Source: Candidatus Omnitrophota bacterium
GTDB lineage: Bacteria > Omnitrophota > Gorgyraeia > B26-G9
Assembly (NCBI GenBank): GCA_018813905.1
Contig: JAHJAO010000005.1
Span: 1-60,187, forward strand
DNA length: 60,187 bases
Reading direction: 5' to 3'
A program made the position numbers and the translations under genes. Shown one piece after another: positions 2 through 57,717 of the stretch. The notes below the pieces were generated by a model. It worked only from the letters and a program-made list of their open reading frames with translations. It ran no database searches and was not told the DNA's origin. Every line of letters starts with the position of its first letter. Positions within the stretch are counted from its first letter, which is position 1.

Positions 2-1117
2 ATGCTGCGGGTGAAAAACATGATTATTATTACCATTTCCGAGCAGAAAGGGGCGAAAGCGGCGGAACGGGCGGCGAATAAAAGAGTTAAGCCGGAGGAG
101 CTGGTAATTTTCTCCCGGCAGCTGGCAACCATGGTCAATGCGGGGATACCGCTGGTGCAGAGTTTGGATATTTTATCCGAGCAGATGGATAGTTTGGCCT
201 TTAGGAAAATCGTCTCCCAGGTCCGCGCGGACGTAGAATCCGGGGCCAGTCTGTCTGCGGCCTTGGAAAAACATCCAAAGGTATTTTCTTTTTTATACGC
301 AAATATGATAAAAGCCGGCGAGACGAGCGGCATGTTAGATGAAATTTTAGAAAGGCTGGCCGGGTATCTGGAGAAAAACGATGCCCTGCAGCGCAAAGTA
401 AAATCGGCCATGGTTTATCCGGCCGTGGTATCGGTTATGGCGATCGGGATCACGTTAGTTTTACTTTTGAAAGTCATCCCGACTTTCAAAGACATTTTTG
501 CATCTTTAGGCGGGACGTTGCCCGCACCCACGCAAATACTTATCACCATATCCGATATAGCCAGGAACTATTTTTTAGTCGCGGTAATTGCTTTTGGCGC
601 CTTTATTTTTGTGCTGCAAAAGGTTGTATCTACGCCAAAGGGAAAAGCAAAATTTGACGAGCTAAAACTTAATATGCCGGTATTCGGCCCGCTCCTGCGC
701 AAAGTGGCGGTTGCCCGTTTTTCAAGGACTTTGGCGACTTTAATCCGCAGCGGCGTACCGATTTTAGGTTCACTGGAGATTGTGGGCAAGACCTCGGGCA
801 ATACTGTTATCGAGCAGGCGGTAGACAAAGCCCGGATCGGGATCCGGGAAGGGGAAAGTATTTCTACTCCGCTTGCGCGCAGCAAGGCCTTTCCGCCGAT
901 GGTTACGCGGATGATTGCCGTCGGGGAAGAATCGGGGGAGCTTGAGAAAATGCTTAGCAAAATCGCGGACTTTTATGAAACGCAGGTAGACGCGGCGGTC
1001 AGCGGGTTAACCAGTATGATTGAGCCTTTAATTATCGCGTTTTTAGGTATTGTGGTCGGTTCAATCGTAATTGCCATGTTTCTGCCGATATTTAAAGTTA
1101 CAGAACTTATTGGATAA
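2..1117 (+). CDS. pilC: Type IV pilus platform protein PilC (GspF family), 5'-truncated by the window edge
   Basis: The ORF is open to the window start. It has the GspF-type repeat pattern (…AGIPLVQSLDILSEQ… and …SGVPILGSLEIVGK…), three hydrophobic TM segments and a typical C-terminus (…MFLPIFKVTELIG). It is followed by pilin genes. Confidence 0.9.
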   Translation: MLRVKNMIIITISEQKGAKAAERAANKRVKPEELVIFSRQLATMVNAGIPLVQSLDILSEQMDSLAFRKIVSQVRADVESGASLSAALEKHPKVFSFLYANMIKAGETSGMLDEILERLAGYLEKNDALQRKVKSAMVYPAVVSVMAIGITLVLLLKVIPTFKDIFASLGGTLPAPTQILITISDIARNYFLVAVIAFGAFIFVLQKVVSTPKGKAKFDELKLNMPVFGPLLRKVAVARFSRTLATLIRSGVPILGSLEIVGKTSGNTVIEQAVDKARIGIREGESISTPLARSKAFPPMVTRMIAVGEESGELEKMLSKIADFYETQVDAAVSGLTSMIEPLIIAFLGIVVGSIVIAMFLPIFKVTELIG

Positions 1118-1171
1118 TTTATAAATTGTTTATTTACAAGAAGTTACAAAACTAAATTTTTTATAAAAGTG

Positions 1172-1200
1172 TTGACAAAGTTGGGTTTAAAAGGTATACT
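1172..1200 (+). promoter_or_regulatory. Sigma70-type promoter for the riboswitch and minor-pilin operon
   Basis: TTGACA (1172-1177), a 17 nt spacer, then TATACT (1195-1200). It lies about 35 nt upstream of the riboswitch aptamer. Confidence 0.7.
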
Positions 1201-1233
1201 TATATTAGAGCAAGAAAACAATTCATTCTTTTA

Positions 1234-1317
1234 TCGAAAAAGGCAAATCCGTCGAAAGGCGGAGACGCAAAGCTACGGGTCTAAAAGATTTTTCTGTTTA
1301 GACGGCCGAGTTGCCGA
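1234..1317 (+). promoter_or_regulatory. c-di-GMP-I (GEMM-I) riboswitch aptamer
   Basis: The sequence reads AAAAGGCAAAUCCGUC-GAAA-GGCGGAGACGCAAAGCUACGGGUCUAAA…UUUAGACGGCCGAGUUGCC. It has a GGCAA/UUGCC closing helix, a GAAA (GNRA) tetraloop hairpin UCCGUC/GGCGGA, the invariant GACGCAAAGC junction, and a second hairpin GUCUAAA/UUUAGAC carrying the CUAAA receptor-like element. It is colinear with the V. cholerae Vc2 aptamer as I recall it. Confidence 0.85.
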
Positions 1318-1340
1318 AAAAAAGGGAAAACTTATGACCG

Positions 1341-1374
1341 CCGGGCTGCCGAAATAAAGGTAGGCCGGTTTTTT
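1341..1374 (+). terminator. Intrinsic terminator acting as the riboswitch expression platform
   Basis: Stem CCGGGCUGCC (1341-1350) pairs with GGUAGGCCGG (1359-1368) with one G.G mismatch. The loop is 8 nt, followed by UUUUUU (1369-1374). It ends 15 nt before the first pseudopilin start. Confidence 0.75.
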
Positions 1375-1388
1375 AATTTTAAGGGCAA

Positions 1389-1862
1389 ATGCGGAAAAAA
1401 ATAAAAAAAAACAAGCGGGGTTTTACGTTAGTAGAAGTGCTGGTTTCGCTGGGGATATTGGCGATTGCGGTTGCTTCAACTATGCAGCTGATGATTTTTC
1501 TCGTGCAGCTAAGCGAAACGAATGATATTATGCTGCCGACGATGAACTCGCTGGAAGGGATTATGGACGAAATCAGAAATGCGCCATTTGAGGATATCAC
1601 CAGCGCTTATGATGATACGACGTTTACGCTGGATGAACTAGATGGTCGTGGCATTCAAAATATGGGCGTGATTACGGTCGATACGATTGAAGCAAATTAC
1701 CTGTTGCGCGTAAAGATAGTTTTATGCTGGAAGCAGAAAAACCGGGTTATGGGAGAAGACAAGAATTTCAACGGACTATTGGATCTGGGCGAGGATGAAA
1801 ACGGGAATAACGAGTTGGATTCGCCCTGCAGCATAGAGGGATCTGTGCGGTGGGCGATATGA
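1389..1862 (+). CDS. Minor pseudopilin (prepilin-type N-terminal cleavage/methylation domain)
   Basis: The N-terminus MRKKIKKNKRG|FTLVEVLVSLGILAIAV has the class III signal peptide (G-F-T-L-x-E) followed by a hydrophobic helix. It is the first gene after the riboswitch. Confidence 0.85.
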   Translation: MRKKIKKNKRGFTLVEVLVSLGILAIAVASTMQLMIFLVQLSETNDIMLPTMNSLEGIMDEIRNAPFEDITSAYDDTTFTLDELDGRGIQNMGVITVDTIEANYLLRVKIVLCWKQKNRVMGEDKNFNGLLDLGEDENGNNELDSPCSIEGSVRWAI

Positions 1863-1872
1863 TTATAAATTT

Positions 1873-2553
1873 ATGAAGATAAAAAAATATTGCCGGAGAA
1901 ATTTAAAAAAAAACGCGGGTTATACATTAATAGAAGCTATATTTACCGTAGGAATTTTTACTTTTGTTATCGGCAGTCTGTTTACGATGCTTATCCATCA
2001 GAACAGCTTTTTTAACCGGACGATGAGCAAGTTCGACGTATCACGCATGACGAGAAAAGTGATGAATATCATGGTCAAAGAGATTCGGTTTTCGAATCTG
2101 CTTACCGTATCCATTTACGACCGGCCTATGGACAGATTTGGCGTAACTAGTGAGTATCGGGACGGCAAAAGCATTGAATTTCAGGTGCCGGTAGACTATG
2201 AGCCGAAGGACGGTGATTTTACCGACGAGTTCGGCCGCTTGGAATGGGGCGCGGACGGGCAACTTGATTGGTCCATAGAATACTGCTGGGATAGTGAGAC
2301 CGAACAGGTTTTTCGACGGGTTTGGGACGAGAACAGCGTACTCGTTAGCGAGATAGAGATTGGCAGCGAGATTACCTCTTTTAGCATCAAAGGGTATAGT
2401 TTTAAAGCCGGGCCGGATAGGTATAAATTAGACTCTGCGTATAAAATTATAGAAATAGAGCTGAGTTCCGTAAAAACGACTATGGCCGGCCGGACGTTGG
2501 ATAATCCGATTTCCTGCACTTTGAGCCAGCGGATTATGTGCCGGAACTCGTAA
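1873..2553 (+). CDS. Minor pseudopilin (PilW/GspJ-like by position)
   Basis: The N-terminus …KKNAG|YTLIEAIFTVGIFTFVIGSLF has a prepilin cleavage/methylation motif with Glu at +5. Confidence 0.8.
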   Translation: MKIKKYCRRNLKKNAGYTLIEAIFTVGIFTFVIGSLFTMLIHQNSFFNRTMSKFDVSRMTRKVMNIMVKEIRFSNLLTVSIYDRPMDRFGVTSEYRDGKSIEFQVPVDYEPKDGDFTDEFGRLEWGADGQLDWSIEYCWDSETEQVFRRVWDENSVLVSEIEIGSEITSFSIKGYSFKAGPDRYKLDSAYKIIEIELSSVKTTMAGRTLDNPISCTLSQRIMCRNS

Positions 2554-2615
2554 GAACTAAGTTATAAATGATGAGTTATAAACTATAAATTAAAACATAA
2601 TAAAGGAGGAAGATT

Positions 2616-5513
2616 ATGAAGTTGACGAACAAAAGAGGCGCGATGCTGATTGCCGCGTACCTGGTGTTATTCGTCATTATTATTGTGATAACCGCGGTTT
2701 TTTCGGTAGTGATGAACGAACGTAAGGAGGTAGAACGCAATGCCGAAGAAATGAAGGCGTTGAATTTCGCGGAGATGGGGTTGGCCTACGCCTATTTTGA
2801 ATCCCAGAATTTAGGCTGGCAATGGTACACGCATAAGTGGAATGCCTCTTTGGACACGTTAATTCCGCTTGAGCCCACAGACTCCCAGTATCAGCAGCAG
2901 GTCCGAACCGACTGCCATTTTGACGCGGACGGTTTTTACGCGGCTGACGACGGAAGCTTTATGGTCAAGTCATACCCCAGCGCTACGGTGGACGGCGAGA
3001 CCATTGTTGTGGCTTTAGGCCTAAGCGGCGGCTATCGCAAGGCCGTAATTTATAATTTGAGCCGGCAGGGAATATATGACTTTTTCTATTTCAGCCCGTA
3101 CAATATTGATTTGGATAATGCTGTCGGCAATTATCCAAAATTAAACGGCGGCGGCATTCACACTAACCAAAACATCTGGTTTGACAATCCGGTGAGACTG
3201 GAGAATATTTCGGAACTAAGCACCGGCGATAACGGCCGTATTTATTACGCGGAGTCCGGCAAGTACCTGGCGCCGCATTACGCGGACGATTTTGACGGAG
3301 CTCGGGACAGCAAAGCCCCGATTGTGCGCCTGGACCAATACACGAATGTTTTCCGCGACGATGCGAATAATGACCCCGGGCCGTTTGGTGAGTATTATTT
3401 GGATAAATATAACAACCGGCTGTGGAGGTTTAAAAGCAACGCGACCTTGTTTGCCCCGCAGTATTCCAGCTGCTGGCCTTACTCGACCACCTATGGCGGC
3501 ACGACCGCGTTTTTAAACACGGAATATAAGTTCTATGGAAATAATCAGCCCTGGTATAATATCCAGCCGGGCAAGTCAGACCCTCAAGTGAGTTCAAGCA
3601 TCAAAAACGATAGCGATGTAGCAATAAACCGGTATAATGTCTGGATTAAGCCGTATCTTGGCCAGACCGAAGACAATAAGATAATTTCCGATGTCTGGAA
3701 GGAAATCCCGGCGGAGCTGGACCAGTCCTGGAGCTGGCAGAAATACGCCTATGTCGCCAGCGGCGAACAGCCAGTTACTTTTTATACTTATAATGACGCC
3801 GGAGAAAAGGTGGATGTGGAAGATACGTATTGGGGGATAAAGACTATAAATCACGAAAACCGATGGGCTGTCCCTCCGGAAGAGTGGGATTTTATTGTGA
3901 TGATATTTACTGACCCGCGTTTTAAAAACGGACCAGCTGGAGCGGGAGGAGTTGAACTTGATTTTGATACGCACGAAGTGATCTGGAGTTGGATTGAGGA
4001 GACGTTTTCGATGATTAACCCGGATGAGTTGGCTGATCATCCCGAAGCCAAAAATTACTGGGATACATATAAATCCCCGGAATATTGGGCGTATATGGGA
4101 AAATATCCGTCCTATCCTTATACCTGGCCGGAATATTTGGATAATGGTATTTTTGACGGCACATACGGAGATGAGTTAAGCAGCGGCGGCCGCATTGACG
4201 TTAAGAGTACCAATAGCCAGGAGCAGCCCGAGGCCTGGAAATCGTTTCTCAGCGCATCGGGTTTAGACAACATTGTGCGCGACGGCAATTCCGGAGGCAA
4301 AGACCTTACTCCGCCGGAATTTGACGCTACTTATAAAAAGTTAGCCGACCGCGACGGGCTTTATATAGGTTTGTCTGATTCTATTAATGACGAATTCAAT
4401 TTTAGCGATTATGACGAGTGGATACAGGTCCTGGAAGAAAGAGTGGGCATTGCGGTGGAACGCTTAAACGAAGGAGAAATAGAGAGCGACAAAATCGCGC
4501 GGAAGGTGAAGTTTATCAATACATACACCGGAAAATGGAACGTGCTTTTGGAAATTGACCTGGAGAAAATGCAGAAAGCGGACAAGTATCCGGATAACGG
4601 GATTATATATACCCAAGTGCCGATACGGTTTACAAACGCAGAAAAGCTGCCGCGTAAAATGGCGAACTATGGGTTTACAGTCATGGGAGAAGAGAATGTT
4701 TATTTAAAAGGGGATTTTAACGTGGACGAATGGGTTACCGCCGCGGTGGTTTCCAAAAAACGGGTGTTCACCTTATCCGATGACTTTAACGACCCGCAGA
4801 ATAAACCGGCAACCCAGCATTACCGGGATTATCCCTATCTGTATGTAAAAGACAATGGTTCCGGCACCTATGTGGAATCCAACCCCGCGCTCGGCGGCGG
4901 GATGTGGGTGTACCGGGATTATTTAAACCACGCTACGACCGAATATTATAACCAAATCTCCTCGGAAAACGAACAGGTGTTAAAAAATATCATCATTCAA
5001 AAAGACGCGGCTTATCTAAGCATGTTTGACAAAAAAGATGATAGCGGCGCAAAAACCGACACCTTTACCTGGCCGGCAAGCGGAGAAAGTTACACTTACG
5101 GCATGATGCCAAACACCGTCAGCAAGAATCACACTTATAATTGCCTGATTGCCGCCAACCGCGACGTAAAAGGGTATAGCTTGGAACGATGGGGTTCGGC
5201 CAGAAAATATTTAAACGGTTCGTTTTTCATCCTGGAATCTACGGGTTTTACCGCGCCGTATCGAAGCCTGGTGGATTATGAGCCGGGAACCGGAACCGGA
5301 GCTAAGGATTTGCCTTATGACAACCGGGACCGCTTAGCTTATGGCCGTACTTATGATTATGCGGGCTACGCCGTATCCGCGCCATCTACTTACTTAAGTT
5401 ATGACCCGCGGTTTAAGACCGCGGCGCGCAGCCCGTCGGATGTCTTCTTCGGCGGCGCGCAATCGTTGTGGATGGAATCTACGCCCGAGTTTTTCTATCA
5501 GCTGAGTTTTTAA
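2616..5513 (+). CDS. Giant pilus-associated protein with a PilX-N/GspK-like N-terminus and an unassigned C-terminal region of about 900 aa
   Basis: A strong RBS (AAAGGAGGAAGATT-ATG) precedes it. The N-terminus KRGAMLIAAYLVLFVIIIVITAVFSVVMNERKEVERNAEEMKALNFAEMGL resembles the PilX N-terminal domain. The remainder is Y/W/D/N/G-rich and I recognise no motif in it. Confidence 0.7.
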   Translation: MKLTNKRGAMLIAAYLVLFVIIIVITAVFSVVMNERKEVERNAEEMKALNFAEMGLAYAYFESQNLGWQWYTHKWNASLDTLIPLEPTDSQYQQQVRTDCHFDADGFYAADDGSFMVKSYPSATVDGETIVVALGLSGGYRKAVIYNLSRQGIYDFFYFSPYNIDLDNAVGNYPKLNGGGIHTNQNIWFDNPVRLENISELSTGDNGRIYYAESGKYLAPHYADDFDGARDSKAPIVRLDQYTNVFRDDANNDPGPFGEYYLDKYNNRLWRFKSNATLFAPQYSSCWPYSTTYGGTTAFLNTEYKFYGNNQPWYNIQPGKSDPQVSSSIKNDSDVAINRYNVWIKPYLGQTEDNKIISDVWKEIPAELDQSWSWQKYAYVASGEQPVTFYTYNDAGEKVDVEDTYWGIKTINHENRWAVPPEEWDFIVMIFTDPRFKNGPAGAGGVELDFDTHEVIWSWIEETFSMINPDELADHPEAKNYWDTYKSPEYWAYMGKYPSYPYTWPEYLDNGIFDGTYGDELSSGGRIDVKSTNSQEQPEAWKSFLSASGLDNIVRDGNSGGKDLTPPEFDATYKKLADRDGLYIGLSDSINDEFNFSDYDEWIQVLEERVGIAVERLNEGEIESDKIARKVKFINTYTGKWNVLLEIDLEKMQKADKYPDNGIIYTQVPIRFTNAEKLPRKMANYGFTVMGEENVYLKGDFNVDEWVTAAVVSKKRVFTLSDDFNDPQNKPATQHYRDYPYLYVKDNGSGTYVESNPALGGGMWVYRDYLNHATTEYYNQISSENEQVLKNIIIQKDAAYLSMFDKKDDSGAKTDTFTWPASGESYTYGMMPNTVSKNHTYNCLIAANRDVKGYSLERWGSARKYLNGSFFILESTGFTAPYRSLVDYEPGTGTGAKDLPYDNRDRLAYGRTYDYAGYAVSAPSTYLSYDPRFKTAARSPSDVFFGGAQSLWMESTPEFFYQLSF

Positions 5514-5582: not shown

Positions 5583-6176
5583 ATGGACAAAAACATGAAA
5601 TTGGTGCTTATCTTCGGCTCGGTTATATTGGCTTTGGTCTTGGTTTGGGTCGTGGCGGACAGCTTTAGGTCCACAACCGGAAAAGCCATGTTGAAAAACA
5701 AAGGGGCAGGAGCGGACTTTGAAGCCAAAGGAAAAGGTAGCTTGTCCGGGACAAATTATGATTCCGCGGCTAATGCGCCCCTGGGAACCAAAGCCCAGGT
5801 CCAGGCCCAGGGGAGAAAGCACAGTTATTATTTTCCCAAAGTAGAACGTAAAGTCGTCCGGACATTTGAGCCGCGTTCCGAACTTGACGACCTCTATTCG
5901 GATAAGATTGAGGATGTATCCGGACAGGAAACGATAGATGGAGTTGCTCCGCTTAGTGAAAAAGAGAGGTTACAACTGATGCAGGTCGCGCCTTCTGTTT
6001 TAGTCGTGGATGAACCGGAGGCAATAGAGAAGAACGCGGAAAAGAAAACGGTTTCTCAAAACTTGCGCCAGGCCCTGCTGGATGCGGGTATGGAAGAACC
6101 GGACGGATTTCTGGAGCACGCGCCGCCGGAATTGCTCGAGGTTTTAGAGCGGGAGATTACGCAAAAGCAGCAATAG
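5583..6176 (+). CDS. Hypothetical membrane-anchored protein, last gene of the minor-pilin operon
   Basis: It has a G-rich RBS, a single N-terminal TM helix (LVLIFGSVILALVLVWVV) and a low-complexity, acidic C-terminal part. No family was recognised. Confidence 0.5.
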   Translation: MDKNMKLVLIFGSVILALVLVWVVADSFRSTTGKAMLKNKGAGADFEAKGKGSLSGTNYDSAANAPLGTKAQVQAQGRKHSYYFPKVERKVVRTFEPRSELDDLYSDKIEDVSGQETIDGVAPLSEKERLQLMQVAPSVLVVDEPEAIEKNAEKKTVSQNLRQALLDAGMEEPDGFLEHAPPELLEVLEREITQKQQ

Positions 6177-6381: not shown

Positions 6382-6410
6382 TTGACATTCAACCCGCGCT
6401 TTTCTATAAT
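6382..6410 (+). promoter_or_regulatory. Consensus sigma70 promoter of the pilS-like/pilR operon
   Basis: TTGACA (6382-6387), a 17 nt spacer, then TATAAT (6405-6410). The TTG 'start' given in the ORF track is the -35 box itself. Confidence 0.75.
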
Positions 6411-6417
6411 AACTTGC

Positions 6418-7674
6418 ATGTTAGATAGCCGAAGTTCCCTGCACACCAAAATAGTTTTCTACCGGTTTGTTATCGCCTCGACAATCTTAATTGTTAACGT
6501 GGCCTTGTTCGGTTTAAACCGCACGCCGATATATTTTCTTATCGCTTCCATATATTTCTTTACAATTATCTATCTGTTTTTCATTTTGTTCCGCGTTTAT
6601 AACATAAGTTTACTTTACGCCCAGGTAGTTATTGACTTGATTAGCGAGGCGCTCCTGATTCATTACACCGGCGGGATTGATTCGGTGCTCGTGCTTTTGT
6701 TCCCGCTTTCCAGCATTGCCGCAAGTATCCTGATTTCACCGCGCGCGGCGGTTCTGGTGGCGCTAGTCGGCAGCAGCTTTTATGCCGGGATAATAACTTT
6801 GGAATTTTTCAATGTGCTGCCTTTACCTTTTGGGGCCGGAGCATTGTTTTTAAGAGACAGCTCTTATGTTTTCACCCTGTTGTATTTTCGGGTGACGATT
6901 TTTTGCATAATTGGTTTTTTAAGCGCCTATATCGCCGAACAAATCAAAAGCCGTGACCGGCAGGTTCTGTCTTTGCAGCAGCAGTTAAGAAGGGAAGACC
7001 GCTTGCTGGCAATCGGGAGATTAGCCGCTAATACCGCGCATGAAATCCGCAACCCTTTAGCTTCCATTTCCGGCTGTGTGGAGGCATTGCAGGGATCAGT
7101 AAAGCTGGATGCGAATAACCAGCGTTTATTCGATTTAATCCTAAAAGAAAGCGCGCGTTTGAATAATATAATCAACGGGCTCCTGGAATACGTTAATCCC
7201 AAAAATTTCCGTTTTCATAACGCGCTTTTATCCGATGTGTTGGACGAAGGTGTTTTGTTGGTGGAAAACAACAAAGACCTGACAAAAAAGTTTTTGATAA
7301 AGCGGGAGGATGATTTTGCGAAATTAAAGGTTATCTGCGATGAACAGAAAATGCTGCAGGTGTTTTTCAACCTCTTGCTTAACGCGGTCGAAGCCGTAAC
7401 CGATGAAGGGGTAATCGTTATCGGCGGCCGGGCGGATATGGATAGGCAAACCGTTCAAATCGAAATTAGCGATAACGGGCGGGGCATGAGCCCGGAGCAG
7501 CTCGAGCATGTTTTCGAGCCTTTTACCAGCGGCAAAGACAAAGGCGTGGGGCTCGGATTGTCTATCGCTTTAAGTATTATGAAAGAGCACGGCGGTGATA
7601 TCCTGGCGGAGAGCAGTTTGGGAAAGGGCTCGGTTTTTAAAGTAATTTTACCGCTAAAAACAAATTTAAAATAA
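6418..7674 (+). CDS. pilS: Membrane sensor histidine kinase, PilS-like
   Basis: It has about 6 N-terminal TM helices, the H-box ANTAHEIRNPLASI, the N-box FFNLLLNAVEA, G1 DNGRGM and G2 GVGLGLS. It lies directly upstream of a sigma54 EBP and pilA. I moved the start to ATG 6418, the first ATG after the consensus promoter. Confidence 0.85.
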   Translation: MLDSRSSLHTKIVFYRFVIASTILIVNVALFGLNRTPIYFLIASIYFFTIIYLFFILFRVYNISLLYAQVVIDLISEALLIHYTGGIDSVLVLLFPLSSIAASILISPRAAVLVALVGSSFYAGIITLEFFNVLPLPFGAGALFLRDSSYVFTLLYFRVTIFCIIGFLSAYIAEQIKSRDRQVLSLQQQLRREDRLLAIGRLAANTAHEIRNPLASISGCVEALQGSVKLDANNQRLFDLILKESARLNNIINGLLEYVNPKNFRFHNALLSDVLDEGVLLVENNKDLTKKFLIKREDDFAKLKVICDEQKMLQVFFNLLLNAVEAVTDEGVIVIGGRADMDRQTVQIEISDNGRGMSPEQLEHVFEPFTSGKDKGVGLGLSIALSIMKEHGGDILAESSLGKGSVFKVILPLKTNLK

Positions 7675-7723: not shown

Positions 7724-9085
7724 ATGCCGGATAAAATATTACTAGTGGATGATGAAACGGATCTGCTCGAATGGCTGAGCGTAGTTTTGGAAAAAGAAGG
7801 ATATAGCGTTTGTTGCGCCAGTTCCGGACAGGAAGCGTTGGAGTGGTTTAAAAAAGAAGCTTTTAACATGGTAATCAGCGATATCCGGATGAGCCCGATG
7901 GACGGCATAGAGCTTTTAAAAAAAATCAAAATCATTAATCCGGAAGTTATTGTGCTGATGATTACGGCTTATGCTTCTGTGGATACCGCGGTCAGCGCCT
8001 TTCGTTACGGAGCGTATGATTATTTATTGAAACCCTTCAAATTAGATGAGATAAAATTGGTGATAAAAAAGGCGGCAATACAAAAAAGAATTTTTTCCGC
8101 CGATAAAAGTTCTCAGAAAAAATTAAAACAGCGTTACGGATTTTCCAATATCATCGGTCAAAGCCGCGTTATGCAAAATGTGTTTGACCGGGTCGAAAAG
8201 GTGGCTAAAAGCAATTCTACCGTGCTTATCTATGGCGAAAGCGGCACGGGAAAAGAATTGATCGCCAAGGCCCTTCACTATCACAGCTTACGGGCGAGGT
8301 GTCCGTTTGTATCCATTGACTGCGGGGCCTTGCCGCAGGAGCTGCTTGAAAGCGAGCTGTTCGGCCACATAAAAGGCTCGTTTACCGGGGCGATATCCTC
8401 AAAACTTGGGTTGTTTGAAGTGGCGCATGGCGGGACGTTATTCCTGGATGAAATCGGAGAGACCTCGCCCGCCTTGCAGATGAAATTGCTGCGGGTATTA
8501 CAGGAAAAAGAAATCCGGCCCGTAGGCGCGACAAAGCCGATTTTGGTGGATGTGCGGATTGCGGCGGCCACTAACCGGGATCTGGAAGAAGAGATTAAAA
8601 AGAATAACTTTCGCGAAGACCTTTTTTACCGCTTAAGCGTCATTTCCTTGTATCTGCCGCGCCTCGAACAACGCCTTGAAGATATCCCGCTGCTTGTGTC
8701 TTTTTTTCTCAAGAAATATAACCTGCCGGGAACGGATCTAAAAAAAATCGGAAAGAAAACATTAGAGTTGCTTACGGGCTATAGCTGGCCGGGCAATGTC
8801 CGGGAGCTTGAAAATTGCATCGAGAGCGCGGTGACCTTGGCGGAAAAAACTACAATCGAACCCGAAGATCTGCCCGAACGCATCCGCAATTTTAGGACTC
8901 AACAAGGAAAAGAGGCAAAACCGGCTTCGTTGAGGGGTAAAATAGAATCGTTTGAGAAAGAAATAATTTATGATACCCTCCAGAAGCTGAACGGCGATAA
9001 AGAAAAAACCGCAAAAATACTGAAAATGACCCGCCGCAATCTGGATTATAAGATTAAAAAATATCAGATTAAAACATCCCGGTGA
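7724..9085 (+). CDS. pilR: Sigma54-dependent response regulator (NtrC family), PilR-like
   Basis: It has a REC domain (LLVDDE…DIRM), an AAA+ sigma54-interaction domain (GESGTGKE, ESELFGH, GSFTGA loop) and a C-terminal Fis-type HTH (KTAKILKMTRRNLDYKIKKY). Confidence 0.92.
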   Translation: MPDKILLVDDETDLLEWLSVVLEKEGYSVCCASSGQEALEWFKKEAFNMVISDIRMSPMDGIELLKKIKIINPEVIVLMITAYASVDTAVSAFRYGAYDYLLKPFKLDEIKLVIKKAAIQKRIFSADKSSQKKLKQRYGFSNIIGQSRVMQNVFDRVEKVAKSNSTVLIYGESGTGKELIAKALHYHSLRARCPFVSIDCGALPQELLESELFGHIKGSFTGAISSKLGLFEVAHGGTLFLDEIGETSPALQMKLLRVLQEKEIRPVGATKPILVDVRIAAATNRDLEEEIKKNNFREDLFYRLSVISLYLPRLEQRLEDIPLLVSFFLKKYNLPGTDLKKIGKKTLELLTGYSWPGNVRELENCIESAVTLAEKTTIEPEDLPERIRNFRTQQGKEAKPASLRGKIESFEKEIIYDTLQKLNGDKEKTAKILKMTRRNLDYKIKKYQIKTSR

Positions 9086-9260: not shown

Positions 9261-9276
9261 TGGCACGCATATTGCT
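9261..9276 (+). promoter_or_regulatory. Sigma54 (-24/-12) promoter of pilA
   Basis: TGGCACG-CATA-TTGCT is an exact match to TGGCACG-N4-TTGCW. It lies 64 nt upstream of the pilA ATG and downstream of a sigma54 EBP gene. Confidence 0.85.
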
Positions 9277-9339: not shown

Positions 9340-9807
9340 ATGAATCGCAGAGGTTTTACGCTTGTAGAAATCATGATTGTAGTGGCAATTATTGCGTTGC
9401 TCGCAGCTATCGCGATCCCGAACCTTTTGCGCGCCCGGCACAATGCTAATGAAGCCGCAGCGCAGGCAACTTTGAAAACAATTTCGGCCGCGTGTGAGAG
9501 TTTCCGTGCTGCACAGACAACGCCGACTTATCCGGCAACTCTTCTGGTTTTAAGCACGGCTGACCCGGAATATATCGATGACGTTTTAGCCGCGGCTACA
9601 GCAGTAGGGACAGCCAGGCAAGGGTATTACTATACGTATACCTTTGTCACTCTTAACGAGTATGTGTGTTCAGCCCGTCCGGCGAATCCGAACGTCTCCG
9701 GTACGAGAGCGTTTGCCATCAATGAAAGCGGTGTAATCAGGGCGGTCGCAGCAGATGCGGCGTGCGGTGACGAAGCTACTTATGATGGTATGACGGTAGT
9801 GCAGTAA
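9340..9807 (+). CDS. pilA: Major type IV pilin
   Basis: RBS AAAGGAGG. The short leader MNRRG|FTLVEIMIVVAIIALLAAIAIPNLL is a type IVa-style prepilin. The protein is 155 aa with C-terminal Cys residues. It has a dedicated sigma54 promoter and a strong terminator. Confidence 0.9.
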   Translation: MNRRGFTLVEIMIVVAIIALLAAIAIPNLLRARHNANEAAAQATLKTISAACESFRAAQTTPTYPATLLVLSTADPEYIDDVLAAATAVGTARQGYYYTYTFVTLNEYVCSARPANPNVSGTRAFAINESGVIRAVAADAACGDEATYDGMTVVQ

Positions 9808-10154: not shown

Positions 10155-11447
10155 ATGGCGGTTATGGATAAGTTTATAAAAATCGCATGTATCGCCGGCG
10201 TATGTTTTCTCATCTTTTTTTTGATATTCAATCCCGCTTTGGGTGCGGTGGTATTTTTTATTACCTTTCCTTTTATCGGGTTTTCCTTTTACGCCAATAT
10301 CCGTTTTCAAAAAACGACAAAGGAGCTTAAAGACGAATTGGATGTTTTGCGGCATGAAAAAAGAGAAATTTTACGCAAAGAAGATGAGGTTGACAGAAAA
10401 CGGCGGTTGCAGTTTGAAAAATTAAAACAGTTTTCCCAGGACCTCGCTTCTTCAGAGGATAAAAACGAAATGCTGCGTTATGTAGTTACCGCTTTTGCCA
10501 AGGCCACGACTTTAACGGCAAGCGAAAGCCAGTGTTTTTTGCTTATCCGCGAGCCGGGCACAAGCGATTTTACCTATGAGGTCGGGTATAATTTCAACCG
10601 CAATAATTTAAGCTCAATGCAGTTCAGCCAGTATGATGAAGTGATAAGCCATGTTGTGGGATCGCAAAACATCGCCTTGTTTTTTGGGAACGTTATAGAC
10701 CGGGATTCAAAACTGCAATATTTTCTGTCCAAAAAAGACAGCGCCATCTTTCGCGCGCAGCTGGATTCTCTGGCCTTGATTCCGCTTGTGCTTGAGGAAA
10801 AAGTGTGGGGGATTATCGTCGTAATTTGCCAGTCCCAGGCAGCAACATACATAAAAAATGAAGAGGAATTTTTCACGTTAATGGTGGCCGAAGCATCTAT
10901 TGCCTTGGGCAGCGCCATACATCGGAGCCTGGCTTCGGTGGATAAATTAACCCAATTATATAACCGGACATTCTTAAATAAACGGGTAAAAGAAGAAATT
11001 GCATTTTGCAACCGGCAGAGGCTGTCGATAAGTTTGTTTGTTATCGATATCGACCATTTTAAGCACGTTAATGATACGTATGGGCACCAGGAAGGCGATA
11101 TGATTTTAAAACGGATATCGCAGCTTTTGGTAAAAAATGTGCGCATTACGGATATCTGCGCGCGTTATGGCGGAGAAGAGTTTGTGATCGTTCTGCCGGG
11201 CTTGGATGAAAAAAAAGACCCAGCGTTTTCGATCGCGGAAAGAATACGTAACGCGGTAGAACATGAAGAATTCATAGTTTTAGGCAAACAAAAAATTGCC
11301 ATTACGATAAGCATCGGCGTGGCGGTTGCGTATTATGCCGAGGATAGAAAGCGGGATTTAGAAGCAATGATAAACAAGGCGGATAATTTATTGTATCAGG
11401 CCAAAAGGGAAGGCCGCAACCGGGTCTGCTATCCAGAGGATGTATAA
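10155..11447 (+). CDS. Membrane-anchored GAF-GGDEF diguanylate cyclase
   Basis: It has two N-terminal TM helices, a coiled region and a GAF-like middle domain. The C-terminal GGDEF domain has an intact active site (RYGGEEF) and an RxxD I-site (RITD) five residues upstream. Confidence 0.88.
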   Translation: MAVMDKFIKIACIAGVCFLIFFLIFNPALGAVVFFITFPFIGFSFYANIRFQKTTKELKDELDVLRHEKREILRKEDEVDRKRRLQFEKLKQFSQDLASSEDKNEMLRYVVTAFAKATTLTASESQCFLLIREPGTSDFTYEVGYNFNRNNLSSMQFSQYDEVISHVVGSQNIALFFGNVIDRDSKLQYFLSKKDSAIFRAQLDSLALIPLVLEEKVWGIIVVICQSQAATYIKNEEEFFTLMVAEASIALGSAIHRSLASVDKLTQLYNRTFLNKRVKEEIAFCNRQRLSISLFVIDIDHFKHVNDTYGHQEGDMILKRISQLLVKNVRITDICARYGGEEFVIVLPGLDEKKDPAFSIAERIRNAVEHEEFIVLGKQKIAITISIGVAVAYYAEDRKRDLEAMINKADNLLYQAKREGRNRVCYPEDV

Positions 11448-57642: not shown

Positions 57643-57717
57643 GCCCCCTTAGCTTAATGGATAAAGCACTGGCCTCCGGAGCTTGTGATGTGAGTTCGAT
57701 TCTCGCAGGGGGCGCCA
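57643..57717 (+). tRNA. tRNA-Arg (anticodon CCG) with a genomically encoded 3' CCA
   Basis: Manual cloverleaf. The acceptor stem is GCCCCCT/AGGGGGC, the D arm is GCTT-AATGGATA-AAGC, and the anticodon arm is CTGGC-CTCCGGA-GCTTG (one T.T mismatch). The variable loop is 4 nt, the T arm is GTGAG-TTCGATT-CTCGC, and the discriminator is G followed by CCA. Confidence 0.88.

Follow-up and report, generated by a model that had tools for sequence, protein, structure and literature searches.

A class I cyclic di-GMP riboswitch, predicted to act as an OFF switch, ahead of a putative type IV pilus tip module in Omnitrophota

GEMM RNAs take their name from an association with motility and membrane genes (PMC7266159), and in the class I cyclic di-GMP (c-di-GMP) aptamer Vc2 the ligand is contacted by G20, A47 and C92 (PMC4744006). 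The class sensing cyclic GMP-AMP (cGAMP) carries A at the G20 position, where it contacts the adenine of the ligand, as described in PMC5888326; the roles assigned below to the contact bases are drawn from both of these papers. A class II c-di-GMP riboswitch is known to precede pilA1 of Clostridioides difficile (Bordeleau et al. 2015, as cited in PMC6916266). Here, a leader RNA is described from Candidatus Omnitrophota, in a stretch of 60,187 nucleotides (nt) of contig JAHJAO010000005.1 that is referred to as the window and whose positions provide the numbering. In this window, the gap after the pilC gene contains a genuine class I c-di-GMP riboswitch equipped with a promoter and a terminator of its own, a conclusion that is well supported by family matching and comparative analysis. 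The interval 1172-1374 is further read, with moderate confidence, as a self-contained leader (sigma-70-type promoter, canonical c-di-GMP-I aptamer and intrinsic terminator) that would serve as an OFF switch on a type IV pilus tip module, the sequence comparison predicting both the ligand and the OFF sign.

The gap comprises 270 nt downstream of a PilC/T2SSF gene that is partial at the window start (2-1117; Pfam E 3e-67), and it contains a promoter, an aptamer and a terminator, followed by the ATG of the first pilin gene. A GEMM-I aptamer had been proposed at this site from the DNA letters alone (hereafter the original prediction), and a cmscan comparison with Rfam, in which the curated gathering scores served as threshold, agrees with that proposal: a plus-strand match at 1233-1319 reaches 76.5 bits (E 2.1e-16) and covers the full length of the RF03167 model (1-80 of 80; gathering score 59). 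A second family of the c-di-GMP-I clan (CL00126) exceeds its own gathering score over the same interval and is masked by clan competition. The original prediction had pointed to RF01051 as the decisive model; the clan match is significant, and the best-scoring model is nominally RF03167, though its distinguishing base is canonical in the window RNA. In homologous leaders, RF03167 or RF01051 is found above gathering, with RF01051 scores of 36-45 bits against a gathering score of 35. The near-consensus promoter anticipated upstream is likewise present on the plus strand at 1172-1200, with a -35 element TTGACA at 1172-1177, a 17-nt spacer and a -10 element TATACT at 1195-1200 (11 of 12 consensus matches), placing the predicted transcription start near 1207. 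Under a loose hexamer pattern, a -35/-10 pair occurs at a similar distance in 19 of the 21 homologous leaders with enough upstream sequence.

Covariation within the helices provides the second line of evidence. Pairing and covariation counts are based on an alignment of 19 distinct leaders, while a motif scan yielded 31 leader copies with duplicates counted in; slid partners served as pairing controls, complemented by 500 shuffles for individual alternative helices. The native structure has 94.3% of its cells paired, compared with 31-52% in the slid controls, and 10 pairs show changes on both sides. P1 consists of U1234-C1235-G1236 paired with C1315-G1316-A1317 (1234-1236 with 1315-1317) and is prolonged by an extension in which UCUUUU (1227-1232) pairs with the purine-rich, Shine-Dalgarno-like tract A1320-G1325, so delimited by the Rfam alignment and the pair counts; the two strands thereby occupy 1227-1236 and 1315-1325 of the plus strand, and the two helices are 87% and 88% paired. 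The first hairpin (1243-1268) carries the GAAA loop at 1254-1257 and shows compensatory changes in six of its six pairs. Its basal bases G1243-C1244 pair with G1267-C1268, and G1242 is the equivalent of G20; the GGCAA/UUGCC closing helix of the original prediction has no counterpart in the family model. The second stem joins 1271-1281 to 1301-1312, with U1311-U1312 at its end, followed by the junction bases G1313-C1314, and is 98.6% paired with one covarying pair (49-84 of the alignment, seen as CG, UG and UA). The GUCUAAA/UUUAGAC hairpin that had been proposed does exist, but merely as the distal part of this longer stem. Candidates for the interhelical pair (C44-G83 in Vc2) are C1266 and G1305; both are invariant in the 19 leaders, a pattern compatible with the pair but offering no variation to show pairing. 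In the tetraloop-receptor region, CUAAAGG...CCUUAAUAG of the leader consensus is similar to CUAAgg...cuAuG of RF01051, and the window itself is fully paired there (UCUAAA/UUUAGA).

An intrinsic terminator of a 10-bp stem plus U6 had also been expected ahead of the pilin ATG, and it is found on the plus strand at 1340-1374, where folding and covariation agree on a stem of 1340-1350 with 1359-1369, a loop at 1351-1358 and six T residues at 1369-1374. Its arms, GCCGGgCUGCC and GGUAGgCCGGU, form 10 pairs around a single G.G mismatch, of which a simple hairpin scanner detects the inner 5 and not the full 10. The helix is 92% paired across the alignment, with compensatory changes at alignment positions 121-147 and 123-145 (A-U to G-C and C-G to U-A), and at least five T residues directly follow the hairpin in 19 of 19 aligned leaders. 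In full-length ensembles, the terminator pairs have probabilities of 0.82-1.0, and the first pilin ATG lies at 1389, 14 nt past the T run. Taken together, the comparison with relatives that the original prediction had suggested reveals covariation in both hairpins as well as in the terminator.

The same covariation bears on whether the 62-amino acid (62-aa) open reading frame (ORF) at 1169-1357 could be the real gene, with the RNA-like features as coincidence. The ORF does exist, and a similar 77-aa gene has been called over the riboswitch of homologous locus L029; however, the 62-aa frame has no Pfam match, conservation in the region tracks base-pair covariation, a single site in the homologs is expanded by 47, 71, 73 or 79 nt, none of them a multiple of three, and the start would fall inside the -35 box. 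A protein-coding explanation therefore has next to no probability, in line with the earlier view that the ORF is spurious.

The leader is also conserved with its target genes. Omnitrophota or the PVC group account for all 16 homologs (41-59% identity) of the 965-aa protein encoded downstream, and loci containing them were drawn from genome, metagenome and assembly collections. The same leader precedes homologous minor-pilin/giant-protein genes in about 20 Omnitrophota loci, and within the set of loci fetched, a c-di-GMP-I clan match occurs on the same strand wherever enough upstream DNA is available. In all loci except L021, this match lies approximately 1.3-1.7 kb upstream of the giant gene and before the pilin-like genes. 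The combination of two minor pilins and the 965-aa protein, originally put forward as the regulated target, is thus supported by retention of the leader ahead of homologous operons. Locus L021 contains two full riboswitch-terminator units in one operon, at 673-830 and 5822-5896, and L029 is identical in this respect. One of the units precedes the pilin genes, and the other immediately precedes the gene for the giant protein; a further giant gene, of 939 aa, is present in L029. In addition, 13 of the 19 homologous aptamers (L007-L011, L014, L016, L018, L021, L028 and L032; for example, L014 4553-4710) possess a 47-116-nt insertion between the C44 equivalent and G45, which forms a pair of neighbouring hairpins; their sequences vary from locus to locus while the fold is kept. 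The window RNA represents the compact form, and to our knowledge no GEMM-I subtype with such an insertion domain has been described.

Alignment to the model equates G1242 with G20, A1269 with A47 and C1314 with C92. The A47 and C92 equivalents are invariant in the 19 leaders, and 17 of them carry G at the position equivalent to G20, G1242 being the base that the original prediction had likewise read as G. Because the contact bases G1242, A1269 and C1314 are all in place, with G and not A at G20, the binding site is, judged from sequence, of the canonical c-di-GMP type. It would be highly improbable for the RNA to be a specificity variant, of the RF03167 GGC type or the cGAMP type, sensing a ligand other than c-di-GMP. 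Such a variant would explain why RF03167 is the best-scoring Rfam model, and the paralogous leaders of L007 and L018 do have A at the G20 position. However, A1269 faces the G that is conserved in RF03167 (model position 37, just after GACGC), whereas the RF01051 consensus has A (GCAAAgC), and all 19 leaders share A at this A47 position; C1314 is kept, a GGDEF cyclase gene lies nearby, and G1242 stands where the cGAMP class has A (PMC5888326). The high score of RF03167 reflects peripheral similarity, with a seed that probably derives from related organisms: the peripheral sequence AGCCACGGGUC...AGACAGCCGGG is almost identical between this highest-scoring model and the window. The name GGC is taken here, as our assumption, to mean G20/G47/C92, the conserved G of the variant being that referred to. 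The GGC variant itself was reportedly defined by Weinberg et al. 2017 (PNAS 114:E2077). Both memberships were rejected for the window RNA, that of the GGC variant on account of A1269, which replaces the diagnostic G as in RF01051, and that of the cGAMP-sensing GEMM-Ib RNAs on account of G1242 where that group has A. Automatic Rfam annotation would nevertheless name the window RNA, together with those of L006, L015 and L020, c-di-GMP-I-GGC (RF03167) despite the missing diagnostic G, and such a label would misname the window RNA as a specificity variant.

Beyond the window, two paralogous leaders, one in L007 (about 895-1120) and one in L018 (about 1270-1500), have the same promoter, aptamer and terminator and carry A at the G20 equivalent (AAUAGCAAACC; near 1011 in L007 and near 1393 in L018). 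This is the base that marks cGAMP-sensing GEMM-Ib RNAs, making the two leaders candidates for that group. Two pilin-like genes and a gene for a 567-aa protein follow the A20 copy in L007, and a G20 copy lies 3.7 kb downstream, before the giant-protein module. A speculative and on balance doubtful extension would be that Omnitrophota possess interchangeable riboswitch-gated pilus-tip modules, up to two or three per genome, in which G20 copies answer c-di-GMP and A20 copies cGAMP, the platform copies the aptamer 3' half with possible assistance from a leader peptide starting at an invariant AUG, and the messengers choose the tip adhesin. If true, second messengers would select the adhesin at the pilus tip rather than simply turn pili on or off.

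The prediction of the OFF sign derives from an unusual expression platform. Across a stretch of 28-30 nt, each of the 19 leaders repeats the 3' half of its aptamer almost unchanged in the 5' arm and loop of the terminator (1301-1325 versus 1336-1360 in the window). Two partners are consequently available to the aptamer 5' strand 1271-1281, the native one and the copy at 1336-1347. Within the near-copy annotated on the plus strand at 1336-1353, which corresponds to 1301-1318 of the aptamer, GAC (1336-1338) and CCGGGCU (1341-1347) can pair with 1271-1281, and 1340-1350 is also the terminator 5' arm. Two further plus-strand segments are proposed as partners in the ligand-free state on the basis of truncated-transcript folds, duplex energies and covariation, namely 1285-1296 (the distal part and loop of the second stem, "q") and 1322-1333 (the 3' strand of the P1 extension plus linker). 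Binding of c-di-GMP would lock the second stem (1271-1281 with 1301-1312) as well as P1 together with its extension (1227-1236 with 1315-1325), the freed copy 1336-1350 would pair with 1359-1369, and the terminator would form and stop transcription at 1369-1374. Without ligand, 1271-1281 would instead pair with the copy 1336-1347, enclosing a helix of 1285-1296 with 1322-1333; this alternative fold would sequester the terminator 5' arm, and RNA polymerase would read through into the pilin genes. High c-di-GMP would accordingly lower expression of the pilus priming/tip module, and the signal may come from the GAF-GGDEF cyclase whose gene lies in this pilus cluster.

Comparative support for this alternative fold includes covariation in its inner helix (1285-1296 with 1322-1333), where five of the ten pairs show changes on both sides, 0 of 500 shuffles reach the observed number of both-side-changed cells or the covariation score, and the slid controls are also exceeded; its duplex energies are -9.4 kcal/mol with a leader's own partner versus -7.7 kcal/mol with a foreign partner. 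The outer helix (1271-1281 with 1336-1347) is 92.6% paired across leaders, and positions 1337 and 1338, which lie outside the terminator stem, still retain the purine/pyrimidine pattern needed for the alternative pairing. When the transcript ends short of the terminator 3' arm, the alternative and aptamer folds are approximately isoenergetic (mean difference -0.4 kcal/mol; in the window, -34.3 for the alternative fold versus -33.6 for the aptamer secondary structure), and the unprompted RNAfold minimum is the alternative fold in several leaders. The original prediction had envisaged a different competitor, in which the aptamer 3' strand pairs with the terminator 3' arm; this pairing is 91% pairable, yet 498 of 500 shuffles equal it and no compensatory changes accompany it, and it was rejected as a by-product of the copy, with no covariation above shuffles. 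The OFF sign is predicted because pairing of the aptamer 5' strand with the terminator 5' arm is the better-supported competitor. Hence the idea of an ON/OFF decision has gained a competing pairing with conserved support, while the accompanying view that its sign is unreadable from sequence gives way to a predicted OFF sign.

Several observations weigh against an OFF switch of this design. The outer alternative helix has no compensatory change, its columns being nearly invariant, and it contains a C.A mismatch in 13 of the 19 leaders. The alignment includes several close relatives, so the cell counts overstate independent events. When the alignment is truncated before the terminator 3' arm, RNAalifold returns the native second stem and not the alternative fold. 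The full-length thermodynamic ensemble always forms the terminator and so gives no sign; because it does so regardless, read-through must be kinetic. The aptamer 3' strand is also transcribed first and would have to be displaced by its copy, the alternative fold keeps all ligand-contact bases and might itself be stabilised by the ligand, and an invariant AUG at 1334-1336 is incompletely explained by either fold.

The retention of the contact bases in the alternative fold is also among the observations favouring the opposite sign, in which the same aptamer and terminator constitute an ON switch, c-di-GMP prevents termination and high c-di-GMP induces the tip module, as with pilA1 of C. difficile. 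Under this reading, which is possible if rather unlikely, the ligand could conceivably stabilise the antiterminator; the MshEN domains of the upstream ATPases would fit, as would the up-regulation of type IV pili by c-di-GMP elsewhere (Bordeleau et al. 2015, cited in PMC6916266). On the other hand, the terminator is a separate hairpin without overlap with the aptamer, the conserved alternative pairings found all capture the terminator 5' arm or loop solely when the aptamer is unclosed, and the analysis revealed no element capable of blocking the terminator with P1 and the second stem in place. The OFF arrangement yields a definite prediction from sequence comparison alone, namely that c-di-GMP increases termination at 1369-1374.

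The invariant AUG may mark a leader peptide whose translation blocks the terminator, or it may reflect an RNA constraint. It opens a seven-codon mini-ORF on the plus strand (1334-1357; ATG ACC GCC GGG CTG CCG AAA TAA, MTAGLPK*) that spans the terminator 5' arm and ends within the loop of this hairpin; the AUG is present in 19 of 19 aligned leaders, with ORFs of 6-17 codons. If the decision were made by a ribosome, this AUG would start the leader ORF, its Shine-Dalgarno-like sequence would be the 3' strand of the P1 extension, hidden when ligand closes P1, and without ligand a ribosome would cover the terminator 5' arm, giving an OFF switch through translation-coupled attenuation. Such a mechanism appears improbable. 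It accommodates an AUG that is invariant whereas the two preceding bases vary, the AAGGA-like purines about 7-8 nt upstream of it, the exact spanning of 1340-1350 by an ORF whose stop usually lies in the terminator loop, and the absence of a partner for A111, the first base of the AUG, in both RNA folds. However, the purine tract is paired in the aptamer as well as in the alternative fold and is degenerate in L020 and L030, the length of the ORF is unconserved, conservation of the AELP peptide is forced by RNA pairing constraints, and approximately 35 nt from the AUG to the end of the T run leave a ribosome little time. The other two bases, G113 and U112, have plausible partners in the alternative fold, C56 and the invariant A58: in the window, these correspond to a G1336-C1281 pair and a possible pairing of U1335 with the invariant A1283. 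Inspection of the homologous leaders and their folds found no conserved 5'-leader sequence complementary to the AUG.

The first gene behind the leader (1389-1862, plus strand) encodes a minor pilin of 157 aa that has the N-terminal methylation motif of prepilins (Pfam N_methyl E 7e-9) and weak PilV/GspI-like NCBIfam matches below cut-off. It is followed on the same strand by a second pilin-like gene of 226 aa (1873-2553; weak Pfam N_methyl match, E 1e-3, below cut-off, with conserved gene order), the 965-aa gene (2616-5513), a conserved target across loci, and a gene for a 197-aa protein with no family assigned (5583-6176), the last of the putative operon. Searches of Pfam, NCBIfam and PDB sequences found no relative of the 965-aa protein, which is a putative large tip pilin or adhesin. 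An AlphaFold2 model of this protein (predicted local distance difference test score, pLDDT, 65) shows a long pilin-like N-terminal helix (residues 6-66) followed by beta-rich domains, and its best PDB fold match, a weak one (E 5e-3, probability 0.51), is ComZ of Thermus (6qvi), a large competence pilin. Further downstream are a PilS-like kinase gene (6382-7674), a gene for a PilR-like sigma-54 response regulator (7724-9085) and, after this pair, the major pilin gene (9340-9807). A sigma-54-type -24/-12 promoter, TGGCAC-N5-TTGC (TGGCACgcataTTGC), lies at 9261-9276, 64 nt before the major pilin gene, corroborating the separate sigma-54 promoter proposed for it earlier. Because the major pilin stands behind this promoter of its own, the predicted target of the riboswitch is the putative priming/tip module and not the fibre subunit. 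The GAF-GGDEF diguanylate cyclase gene (10155-11447; Pfam GGDEF E 4e-46, GG[DE]EF motif present) sits between the major pilin gene and pilM/pilO/secretin. In some systems, MshEN domains are c-di-GMP binders that stimulate the extension of pili; in L001, three consecutive MshEN-domain genes (344-4452, upstream of the window start) precede pilC, encoding a 206-aa MshEN-only protein and two T2SSE ATPases, and a simple regular expression did not find the exact MshEN c-di-GMP-binding motif in these ATPases. A tRNA gene is also present in the window at 57643-57714 (Rfam RF00005, 59.3 bits).

Omnitrophota are uncultured and largely uncharacterised, and their pili and giant surface proteins are the main candidates for cell contact; the leader would tie c-di-GMP signalling directly to the type IV pilus priming/tip module in this phylum. 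Knowledge of the riboswitch class itself is unchanged. The conserved copy of the aptamer 3' half within the terminator provides a compact natural example of strand exchange, which could inform studies of riboswitch folding and design.

In comparison with Vc2 of V. cholerae (RF01051), the window RNA displays the same two hairpins on a short P1 with a GNRA tetraloop, the same GGCAAA...GAAA...GACGCAAAGC...CUAA core and the same contact bases (G20/A47/C92 = G1242/A1269/C1314), with the candidate C and G of the interhelical pair conserved. It differs in the 6-bp U/A-rich extension of P1, in its Omnitrophota host, in the distal second stem, which is plain Watson-Crick (UCUAAA/UUUAGA) where the consensus has a receptor-like asymmetric loop, and in an expression platform that copies the aptamer 3' half. 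The Geobacter 3'3'-cGAMP (GEMM-Ib) riboswitches share the fold, with A replacing the G20 that the window retains. Like the window leader, the C. difficile pilA1 element places type IV pilus genes under c-di-GMP control via a transcription terminator; however, its aptamer is of class II and it controls the major pilin, whereas the window RNA is of class I and precedes a minor-pilin/tip module. The pilA1 riboswitch of Bordeleau et al. is said to be an ON switch. Classical transcriptional OFF riboswitches likewise combine a ligand-stabilised aptamer, a mutually exclusive antiterminator and an intrinsic terminator. Usually, the antiterminator uses the aptamer 3' strand, and the terminator 5' arm is complementary to that strand. 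In the window, by contrast, the terminator 5' arm duplicates the 3' half of the aptamer, and the antiterminator would use the aptamer 5' strand, looping out the native 3' strand. It is therefore well supported that the window RNA joins a known riboswitch class, in an under-studied phylum and with a somewhat unusual expression platform.

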